Made by a program: the position numbers and the translations under genes. Shown here piece after piece: positions 23,360 to 26,765 of a DNA stretch of 31,903 bases (positions within the stretch are counted from its first letter, which is position 1; every line of letters starts with the position of its first letter). Source of the DNA: Candidatus Helarchaeota archaeon (GTDB lineage Archaea; Asgardarchaeota; Lokiarchaeia; Helarchaeales; RDOG01); contig JALGVI010000056.1 of NCBI GenBank assembly GCA_029838215.1, positions 1-31,903 of the forward strand. The letters are read 5' to 3'. Under the pieces are notes generated by a model. The model was not told the origin of the DNA and made no database searches. It saw only the letters and a program-made list of their open reading frames with translations.

Positions 23360-24151
23360 TTATTGAATGACGTGCGCACGATCGATGAAGTTCTTTAAAG
23401 ACCGTAGGATCTTGATTAGCTCCCAGATCTTTACTTGATCTCCTTCGGTTAATAAATTCTGCAAGAATGATTCAAAATCTCCTCTTGACACATATTTTGA
23501 GAATTCTCCCAATTCCCAGAGGAGGTTTTTCATATCGGTCTGGGAAGCAGCCGTTGCCCAAGTCGAGCTCGGAACTGATTTGGCAGCTTCCATTGAAATG
23601 GGTTCTTCTATTTGTGGCGTGGGTGCAGGTGTTGGGGTTGGTTCTGGTATGGGTTCTGGAGCAGGAGCCTCTGCTTGAGAAGGAACAGGGGTTGGTGCTG
23701 CTTTGCTTAATATGGACATGACGTTATCATTTGCTCTTGCCACGTCCATATATGCCACGCCTGCTCCACCTTCTGGTGTGACGTAAGCAATCATTATTTG
23801 TTGATCTCTATTATTTGTTGCCACTATATGTCCCATTCCCATGACATTCGTGCCAACTAATCTTTCAGGCGTGCATTGTAATATGGAGTATTTTATGCCT
23901 TGAACGGTAATGGATGGTGCCTGTTGTCTCCATGAGTTCAACAATAAAATTATGTCCGATGTAATGTCCCAATTAGAAGTTTGGAAGATGACTTCCCCTT
24001 GTCCATTTGTTATGGTTACTGCCGTTACTGAATTGTTTTTATCCATCAAGCCTCTAATTTCTTGCTCAATTTCACTGGTTTGTATTTGGTTCACTTTTGG
24101 GCGACCTTCCAATGGAGATTTTTGCCTATCTTGAGGAATCAGTAAATTCAT
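23360..24151 (-). CDS. Asgard-type profilin with Pro-rich linker and extra C-terminal helical domain
   Basis: AVTITNGQGEVIFQTSNWDI...W....ITVQGIKYSILQCTPERLVGTNVMGMGHIV...IAYVTPEGGAGVAYMDVARA matches the Asgard profilin pattern; ~115 aa follow it. Confidence 0.82.
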   Translation of the reverse strand: MNLLIPQDRQKSPLEGRPKVNQIQTSEIEQEIRGLMDKNNSVTAVTITNGQGEVIFQTSNWDITSDIILLLNSWRQQAPSITVQGIKYSILQCTPERLVGTNVMGMGHIVATNNRDQQIMIAYVTPEGGAGVAYMDVARANDNVMSILSKAAPTPVPSQAEAPAPEPIPEPTPTPAPTPQIEEPISMEAAKSVPSSTWATAASQTDMKNLLWELGEFSKYVSRGDFESFLQNLLTEGDQVKIWELIKILRSLKNFIDRAHVIQ

Positions 24152-24190: not shown

Positions 24191-24206
24191 TATTTAAAGA
24201 ATTTTT
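24191..24206 (-). promoter_or_regulatory. BRE + TATA box upstream of the profilin gene
   Basis: Minus strand GAAAAATTC-TTTAAATA about 40 nt upstream of ATG 24151. Confidence 0.5.
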
Positions 24207-24251: not shown

Positions 24252-24497
24252 TTAATGGTTCTTGAAATCTTTCAAGAGTTCGATGCGATTTTTCGTTTTT
24301 GTTATGCGGGAAACGTTAATAATACCTTGAATTTCTAAACTCATGATGTTTTTCGAGAATTCAGAAGGAGATAGGTCTTTAAATTCCTTAAGAAGATTGT
24401 TGTATAGATCTGTATCTACGCTAATACCCTTATTTTTAAGAAGAATTTGAATTATTGTATTTTTTATGGGTAACGTGTTCCATGTAATTTTTCTCAT
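24252..24497 (-). CDS. Small winged-helix protein downstream of cdc48
   Basis: PIKNTIIQILLKNKG..VDTDLY...SEFSKNIMSLEIQGIINVSRITKTKNRIEL has wHTH topology. An alternative ATG at 24569 abuts the cdc48 stop. Confidence 0.75.
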   Translation of the reverse strand: MRKITWNTLPIKNTIIQILLKNKGISVDTDLYNNLLKEFKDLSPSEFSKNIMSLEIQGIINVSRITKTKNRIELLKDFKNH

Positions 24498-24569: not shown

Positions 24570-26765
24570 TTACATGACGTGCGAGGGTCCTGAATAATCA
24601 CCCGAGGATTTCTTAATTATTTGTGCTTGGCGCTTGTAATACTTAATGATCTGGTCGTTCACGGTCGGATGTATCTTTTCCATTGCATTCTTGAAATCTT
24701 CCATGGTTACTTTTTCAACATCAAAATCCCTTCGTAATGCCAAGATACCTGCTTCTTGGCAGACTCCTTCAATGTCAGAACCAACAAAATGCTTGCTCTC
24801 TCTTGCTAGTCGATCTACGTCAACGTCGGGAGCTAATGGCATCTTTTTCGTATATATCTCAAAAATTTGACGGCGTTCGTGTTCATTCGGTGGCTCGATC
24901 AGGATTACCCTGTCAAATCTACCGTGTCGAATTAATGCTCTATCAACGATATCTAAACGATTCGTTGCTGCCATGACGACCACGTCTTTCAATGTTTCTA
25001 ATCCATCAAGTTCCGTCAGAATTTGGCTTATGACTCGAGAAGTGACATTTGAATCTCCAAAACTCATCCCTCTAGTTGGCGCAATGGCATCAATTTCATC
25101 AAAAAATATGATGGCGGGTGATGCGGTCCTTGCCTTCTTGAACACCTCACGAATTGCTTTTTCCGATTCTCCGACCCACTTGCTAAGAACCTCTGGTCCT
25201 TTGACGCTAATGAAATTAGCTTCGCTTTCCGTTGCTGTTGCTTTTGCAATGAGTGTTTTACCACAACCTGGAGGACCGTAAAGCAGTATGCCCTTCGGTG
25301 GTTTTATTCCAACTTTAGCAAATTTTTCAGAATGTTTTAAGGGCCATTCCACGGCTTCTACCAGCTCTTGCTTGATGTAATCTAGTCCTCCTATATCCTC
25401 CCAATGGACATTTGGATTTTCTATCATTACCTCACGAATTGCAGAAGGTTGAATTTCCTTAAGAGCACTATAAAAATCATTTGCGGTGACTTCTATTCTA
25501 TTCAAGATTTCAGTTGGAATTTCTTCATCTTCTAAATTTATCTCCGGAAGATAACGACGAAGGCATTTCATTGCGGCTTCACGACACAAGGCGGCAAGAT
25601 CTGCGCCTACAAAACCGTGAGTAATGCTGGCAAAATCCTCCGTTTCAACATCTTTACTCAATGGCATTGCTCTTGTATGAATTTGTAAGATTTCTAACCG
25701 ACCTTTCTTGTCAGGTACTCGAATTTCAATTTCGCGATCGAAACGACCGGGTCGCCTCAAGGCAGGGTCCAAGGCATTAGGACGGTTGGTTGCTCCAATC
25801 ACTATGACTTTTCCTCTTCCGTGAAGCCCGTCCATCAATGCAAGTAATTGTGCTACTACTCGGCGCTCAACTTCTCCCGTTACTTCTTCCCGCTTTGGAG
25901 CAATGGCATCCAATTCATCAATGAACACGATGCTGGGGGAATTCTTATCGGCTTCTTCAAAGATTTTTCTGAGCTTCTTTTCACTTTCACCATAAAACTT
26001 GCTCATTATTTCAGGACCGTTTATTGGAATGAAGTGCGCATCTGATTCATTAGCAACAGCGCGTACTAATAAAGTCTTGCCACATCCTGGAGGTCCTGCA
26101 AGAAGAACTCCCTTCGGCGGACTAATTCCAAGCTTCTTAAAAAGCTCGGGATGTTTTAACGGAAGCTCCACCATCTCCCGTATCCTTTGTATCTCTTCAT
26201 TCAACCCTCCTATATCTTCGTATGTTATGAGGGGAATACCTCCGGGAGTTTCCTCAAGAGCACTCTCACTAACACGAAGCACGGTCGAATTTTTTATGAC
26301 AACGACACCATTAGGTCGAGTTGATATGATCTGAAATGGGACTTCCTTCTTTATACCGATAGGAATGTAAATGATGTCATCTTTTGTCACGGGACAATTC
26401 AACAATTTCTTCTTGACAAAAGTTTCCACGTAAGGATCTGCCCGTATATTCACTGTTGTTGGTGCAATGATTATCGTTCTTGCCGTCTTTTCTTCTGCCT
26501 TAATTACTTCAACTGTTTCTCCGATTGTTACTCCGGCATTCTTTCGTAAACGACCATCCATTCGGATTATGTTCTGTCCGCGATCTTCTGAGTAGGCTGG
26601 CCAAGCCATTGCTGCAGTAACTCTTTTTCCCTTTATTCCTACGATATCGCCTGACTGGATCATCAATTTATCCATGAGATTTTGATCAATTCGGATGATA
26701 GATCGTCCAACATCTCTGGGTTTCGCCTCGGCGACCTTTACTAGTTCGAAGTCCATTTCAACCAC
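24570..26765 (-). CDS. cdc48: CDC48/VCP/p97-family AAA+ ATPase
   Basis: N-domain [11 protein letters not shown], two AAA modules with [32 protein letters not shown]. Start is GTG 26765 or ATG 26756. Confidence 0.97.

Follow-up and report, generated by a model that had tools for sequence, protein, structure and literature searches.

The window analysed here, that is the whole 31,903-nucleotide stretch of contig JALGVI010000056.1 of a Candidatus Helarchaeota archaeon (assembly GCA_029838215.1), encodes on its minus strand a protein in which a profilin domain is followed by a disordered linker and a three-helix C-terminal domain (hereafter the long profilin and its tail), with a small ORF and a gene for a CDC48/p97-type AAA ATPase upstream of it (Table 1). 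Candidate partners are present in the same genome (3.6 Mb, 94% complete), where Lokiactin (378 aa) and an actin-related protein are encoded along with several gelsolin-domain genes. Another candidate is the genome's second profilin (L006:1501-1866 (+), contig C75), a single-domain protein of 121 aa that shares 33% identity with the corresponding domain of the long profilin.

Table 1. Features of the long-profilin locus, with positions in the window
Feature	Coordinates	Strand	Remarks
Whole ORF, P0001	23360..24151	minus	263 aa from ATG at 24151; stop codon within coordinates
Doubtful N-terminal 19 residues	24095..24151	minus	ATG start versus GTG start at 24094
Profilin domain, residues 20-151	23699..24094	minus	phmmer, Foldseek, AF2
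Disordered low-complexity linker, residues 152-192	23576..23698	minus	XP-type; pLDDT 36-59
Short motif VPSSTW, residues 193-198	23558..23575	minus	V, P, S and W invariant
Three-helix C-terminal domain, residues 203-263	23363..23545	minus	AF2 helices; predicted homodimerisation module
Conserved 81-aa winged-helix-like ORF	24252..24497	minus	immediately upstream of profilin; context, candidate only
CDC48/p97-type AAA ATPase	24570..26765	minus	Pfam CDC48_N, CDC48_2 and two AAA domains; co-directional

Gene model and neighbourhood

The locus is on record in two versions, one of 263 aa, which contains both peptide strings quoted in a preliminary description of this DNA, and one of 244 aa, the alternative gene call P0002, which begins at the GTG. 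A GGAAGGT stretch lies 10 nt upstream of this GTG, and a TTTAAATA box at 24191-24198 is compatible with either start. The 19 residues that separate the two versions have no counterpart in 33 of the 35 orthologues aligned, which start approximately 7-12 residues ahead of the first helix, and are disordered in the AlphaFold2 (AF2) model (pLDDT ~54); a comparable but shorter N-extension occurs in the closest relative, P0003 (71% identity), only. The N-extension of about 25 aa proposed in the preliminary description thus shrinks to at most 19 residues, and its existence hinges on preferring the ATG over the GTG. Beyond it the AF2 model divides the chain into the profilin domain (20-151), a disordered stretch (152-202) and helices at 203-223, 226-236 and 239-262.

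The succession of CDC48, small ORF and profilin is kept in relatives at 49-58% identity, with a radical-SAM gene next in three of four loci, and synteny between CDC48 and the profilin holds in L001, L007, L008 and L009. The small ORF, located between the two, adjoins the profilin in three of the four relatives' loci, two other genes standing between them in L007, and is 47-65% identical across these loci with weak similarity to Fur-type winged helix-turn-helix proteins (E 0.01-0.1). A longer reading of this ORF, 105 aa from the first ATG, finds no support in the orthologues.

Domains of the long profilin

Comparison with all PDB chains using phmmer matched residues 41-141 to the Odin profilin 5zza_P (E 8e-19), followed by 7pbh (E 5e-14), Loki profilin-2 5zzb (E 3e-13), Loki profilin-1 5yed (E 3e-12) and 6yrr (E 8e-5). 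The full-length AF2 model, for which the 35 orthologues served as alignment input, has pLDDT values above 90 over residues 20-151 and a topology of helix, two strands, short helix, five strands and helix (helices 20-38, 64-75, the short one, and 130-151, with seven strands in all). Its best structural match in Foldseek is again 5zza_P (E 2e-11, TM by target 0.89, rmsd 1.5 Å, 33% identity), and the top 16 rows are all profilins of Asgard or eukaryotic origin. The preliminary description had named roadblock, longin and PAS folds as the alternatives to a profilin. Roadblock and longin domains have a five-stranded sheet and a full central helix used for dimerisation, whereas profilins place N- and C-terminal helices on a seven-stranded sheet with an extra three-strand motif missing from the former. 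The model has seven strands and a half-length central helix, and roadblock and MglB chains enter the Foldseek list at rank 17 with E ~1e-5 or weaker, so that the N-terminal domain is a genuine Asgard-type profilin, as that description had proposed. Presumably it binds monomeric Lokiactin, by analogy with its solved relatives, which bind actin.

The Pfam profilin model PF00235 scores this domain below its cut-off (15.4 versus 25 bits) in a match beginning only at model position 13; the cut-off is also missed by the second profilin of the genome and by the Loki-type long profilins described below, and the low score is a matter of detection threshold. Besides this sub-threshold match, Pfam gave two weak ones of low complexity (E up to 10) across the full protein, and no FH2, EVH1 or EVH2 domain. 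A conserved aromatic residue on the N-terminal helix, which together with the C-terminal helix carries the aromatic poly-proline site of eukaryotic profilins, is absent from the 35-orthologue alignment. Such an aromatic site is not a requirement for Asgard profilins: those of Loki and Odin are reported to lack poly-proline binding and that of Heimdall to bind poly-proline weakly (summarised in PMC9433394).

The linker was described beforehand as Pro-rich, which is accurate for the composition of the window's copy (30% proline) and misleading for its pattern and for the family. Every proline is isolated in an XP pattern, giving a longest run of one; orthologue linkers of 31-56 aa contain 8-30% proline (8-13% in several of them) with longest runs of 1-3, and the bulk of their composition is Q/A/E/T/Y. 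Profilin recruitment by formins and Ena/VASP proteins uses runs of about five or more prolines, and a poly-proline tract in this sense is absent from the linker of the window's copy and from those of its orthologues. The VPSSTW motif that follows is unfolded in the full-length and the tail-alone models (pLDDT <50) and lies outside the dimer interface predicted for the tail.

The tail is modelled as three helices with pLDDT 84-92 when folded alone and 68-81 within the full-length model (pTM 0.52). Its profile (A2), searched against 1.84 billion representative proteins, recovered its own family and three other matches, none of which qualifies as an outside relative: P0038 is a fragment, P0039, a plant retroelement-like protein, matched spuriously through a repeat, and P0037 comes from a contig of 590 nt. 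The latter (165 aa, from ENA) is ABC-permease-like except for its last ~33 residues, which correspond to residues 186-218 at 97% identity, and is most likely a chimeric assembly. Pfam and NCBIfam gave no match to the tail, a profile search of the PDB nothing better than E >0.1, and Foldseek against the PDB no rows; in the ESM Atlas a shape search stayed at TM <0.5 and a feature search gave no usable match. A wide VIA-align search reached a best Z of 4.8 with generic helical hairpins, the best of these weak fold matches being the dimerising hairpins of RILP, SYCE3, TraM and DNTTIP1. The tail, present once in the window's own genome, is therefore a helical domain without detectable relative outside its family by sequence or fold, which bears out the earlier suggestion of a novel helical C-domain.

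Orthologues and distribution within the class

The 35 orthologues (189-251 aa), whose MAGs carry the labels Helarchaeota, Lokiarchaeota, Hodarchaeota or Promethearchaeota, all have the three-part plan, in which mean column identity is high in the profilin domain (0.78) and the tail (0.77) and low in the variable linker (0.40). Because linker and tail are kept in every one of them, a lost stop codon, the artefact against which the preliminary description had cautioned, is excluded and the fusion is real; judged from these alignments it is ancient and conserved. No short single-domain close relatives were found at E <=1e-5.

Among 400 genomes of the phylum, the tail profile of the window's type (Hel-type) matched all five genomes of families f1 and f2, both of the window's order, and no others. 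A search with the profilin domain revealed proteins of about 200 aa with the same plan in other families of the class, and the profile of their tail (Loki-type) occurs in 153 of the 154 genomes of families f4-f7, with no match in the window's order or outside the class. Both f3 genomes lack either type, as do the approximately 240 genomes sampled outside the class. Hel-type proteins and Loki-type ones, the latter including UYP46361.1 and, from Ca. Harpocratesius, MCF2139023.1, share the arrangement of profilin, linker and three-helix tail in the same register, and can be aligned over their whole length (hhalign E 2e-36, 198 columns, A1 4-243 versus A5 13-212). The tails alone align weakly (P 0.013, 46 columns, 24% identity, same helix register), and the two tail profiles, A2 and A4, do not detect each other's members in genomes. 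The Loki-type linker is also shorter and bears a different conserved motif. The complementary distribution of the two types within the class and their collinearity would be explained most economically by one long profilin ancestral to the class, the tails being possibly homologous.

The two types differ in their surroundings, a zinc-finger gene and a membrane-protein gene in one against CDC48 and the winged-helix ORF in the other. More specifically, a conserved zinc-finger-like gene (162-208 aa) flanks the Loki-type long profilin in L031, L032 and L025, and a membrane-protein gene (233-245 aa) also adjoins it in L031 and L032. Many Loki-type genomes contain 2-4 matches to the Loki-type tail profile (e.g. 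G267:C118:3483-3662 and G230:C172:13103-13270), some within open frames of 355-480 aa, so that paralogues or further fusion proteins may carry this tail as well.

The Loki-type family comprises 583 cluster representatives, all labelled 'hypothetical'. As database copies of long profilins are all recorded as 'hypothetical protein', the family is effectively unannotated. One member, UYP46361.1 of Candidatus Lokiarchaeum ossiferum, is listed as B35_Pro1 and was detected in the proteome (supplementary tables, 10.1101/2025.11.30.690169). Its enrichment in the Lokiactin co-immunoprecipitation of the same study was apparently weak and non-significant (~0.31 log2, p ~0.17), compared with 1.07 (p 0.002) for the short B35_Pro2, both values being read from supplement columns that are unlabelled, and the authors note a bias of the method against membrane-associated proteins (10.1101/2025.11.30.690169). 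The main text of the preprint never names B35_Pro1 and mentions no tail on any profilin.

Solved Asgard profilins (5zza_P; 5yed, 5yee and 5zzb, which are Loki profilin-1 and -2; 7pbh; 6yrr) share the fold of the N-terminal domain and are chains of 119-148 residues, essentially the profilin domain alone; the long profilin is extended beyond this domain by a disordered linker of 40-50 residues and the conserved helical tail (about 60 residues). A literature search returned no description of an Asgard profilin with a C-terminal domain, an earlier mention being possible in BioEssays 2023 or a 2018 Nature paper. Further fusions were observed in sister genomes. A different kind of multidomain profilin is an 853-aa protein of the sister-family genome G127 (L033:392-2953 (+)), in which approximately 600 aa of coiled coil and a low-complexity linker containing LLG/LLT repeats precede the profilin domain at the C-terminus. 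A 509-aa protein of G126 (L034:829-2358 (+), contig C118) joins TrmB-like winged-helix repeats through a Pro-rich linker to a C-terminal profilin domain; on the same contig the Lokiactin gene (C118:27045-28178) is about 5 kb away and a further profilin about 10 kb. The single-domain premise consequently holds for the characterised profilins and fails for a class in which long profilins are nearly universal, with coiled-coil and winged-helix fusions in its sister genomes.

Predicted dimerisation of the tail and possible roles in actin assembly

Two copies of the tail modelled together with the alignment gave ipSAE values of 0.49, 0.47 and 0.48, compared with 0.00-0.01 for three controls with unrelated partners. 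Among solved proteins, 20 of 30 homodimers attain the pass mark applied and one of 23 monomers does, a calibration that allows for as many as about 19 passes per 100 monomers. The dimer runs had at least 82% of their contacts in common and a partner pLDDT of at least 67, and the result does not reproduce a known structure since no similar one has been solved. The predicted interface is symmetric and formed by helix 3 against helix 3' (L245, I248, L249, L252 and F255) and helix 3 against helix 1'; the five residues named align with hydrophobic residues of the Loki-type tail. The tail is thus predicted to dimerise, on a model confidence score rather than a measurement, in keeping with the oligomerisation option of the preliminary description (ipSAE 0.48 versus 0.01 in controls). 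Interface columns show no extra conservation (0.72 versus 0.76 elsewhere, p 0.55), and 11 invariant residues (V193, P194, S196, W198, K208, W212, K219, D238, V240, K247 and R250) lie outside the interface, which means that dimerisation cannot be the whole story and points to a further binding surface.

We posit, with about an even chance of being right, that dimerisation of the tail makes the long profilin a bivalent, tethered profilin and that an invariant second surface probably docks the resulting hub. For the window's copy we infer actin binding, docking and any effect on polymerisation: by homology the profilin heads would load actin monomers, the linker (31-56 residues) would act as a flexible spacer between profilin and three-helix domain, and the three-helix domains would pair through the predicted contacts of helix 3 with helices 3' and 1'. 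In the working particle, a small helical hub would then hold two flexible arms, each ending in a head that loads actin. To judge from its invariant residues, the second surface (VPSSTW, K208, W212, K219, K247 and R250) may dock the hub on a protein or membrane site, and docking would concentrate polymerisation-competent actin there.

It is possible, if rather unlikely, that the tail is instead a monomeric docking module for another partner, such as a lineage-specific protein or a membrane, where it localises profilin-actin, and that the dimer is an artefact. The predicted interface leaves out many invariant polar, aromatic and basic residues along with the unfolded VPSSTW motif, the surfaces of the Hel-type and Loki-type tails are strongly different, as expected with a co-evolving partner, and the reported co-immunoprecipitation bias would affect a membrane-associated protein; however, the dimer test was passed with clean controls, and the sole conserved neighbours that might supply a partner, CDC48 and the small winged-helix ORF, possibly reflect inherited gene order. 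A tail that serves as a second actin-binding element, contacting the side or end of a filament so that the protein feeds profilin-actin to it, we regard as improbable. A precedent of a kind is the Thor protein 1DGelX: its gelsolin core is extended at the C terminus, and the extension includes domain X, a predicted coiled coil hypothesised to bind the filament side (PMC7444086). Like the long profilin, it places an extension after the core of an Asgard actin regulator, the core being gelsolin rather than profilin, and domain X has no similarity to known actin-binding proteins (PMC7444086). The high conservation of so small a domain would also suit a second actin-binding element, yet the tail resembles no known actin-binding fold or motif, and Lokiactin is 80-81% identical between the window's genome and Loki-type genomes compared with ~24% for the tails, an argument weakened by the profilin domains themselves being only 30-42% identical.

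The two remaining readings concern contacts within the chain. Auto-inhibition, in which the tail would pack against its own profilin domain until released, would be permitted by the long flexible linker and would fit the exclusive co-occurrence of the two domains, but the full-length AF2 model contains no confident interdomain packing and models the tail with lower confidence than in isolation, and we hold this to be very unlikely. We give next to no credence to the proposal, made in the preliminary description, that the linker is a cis ligand of the protein's own poly-proline site, so that the protein would either work by itself like a formin or VASP or be auto-inhibited. The proline content of the window's copy, from which that proposal arose, is not conserved and is not arranged in tracts, and the N-terminal helix lacks the conserved aromatic residue in a group whose Loki and Odin members are reported as non-binders (PMC9433394); the absence of a poly-proline tract and the variable linker composition likewise speak against auto-inhibition through the linker.

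The tethered, bivalent profilin that we favour recalls in concept Ena/VASP proteins and the FH1 region of formins, in which an oligomeric hub gathers profilin-actin units on flexible arms. The likeness is an analogy only, because those systems recruit profilin non-covalently by poly-proline tracts, whereas the long profilin carries its profilin in the same chain and has no poly-proline. Taken further, the long profilin could be an Asgard stand-in for the absent formin/VASP class, a dimeric hub at membranes or filament ends that delivers two tethered profilin-actin units. We consider this a doubtful extension with only a small chance of being correct; if true, it would represent a site-directed device for actin elongation or nucleation in Lokiarchaeia that predates poly-proline recruitment.

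Asgard archaea are not known to possess machinery that sets where filaments grow, although actin, profilins and gelsolins are all present in them. Such nucleation machineries have been described as yet to be discovered in these organisms (PMC9433394). Profilin is already a module of multidomain proteins in Asgard archaea, in the long form and in the coiled-coil and winged-helix fusions. What was known is the Asgard profilin domain, and what is new is a conserved, predicted-dimeric helical tail fused to it by a disordered linker. Nearly universal in one Asgard class and expressed in a cultured species, the long profilin is a testable candidate for the spatial control of actin assembly.
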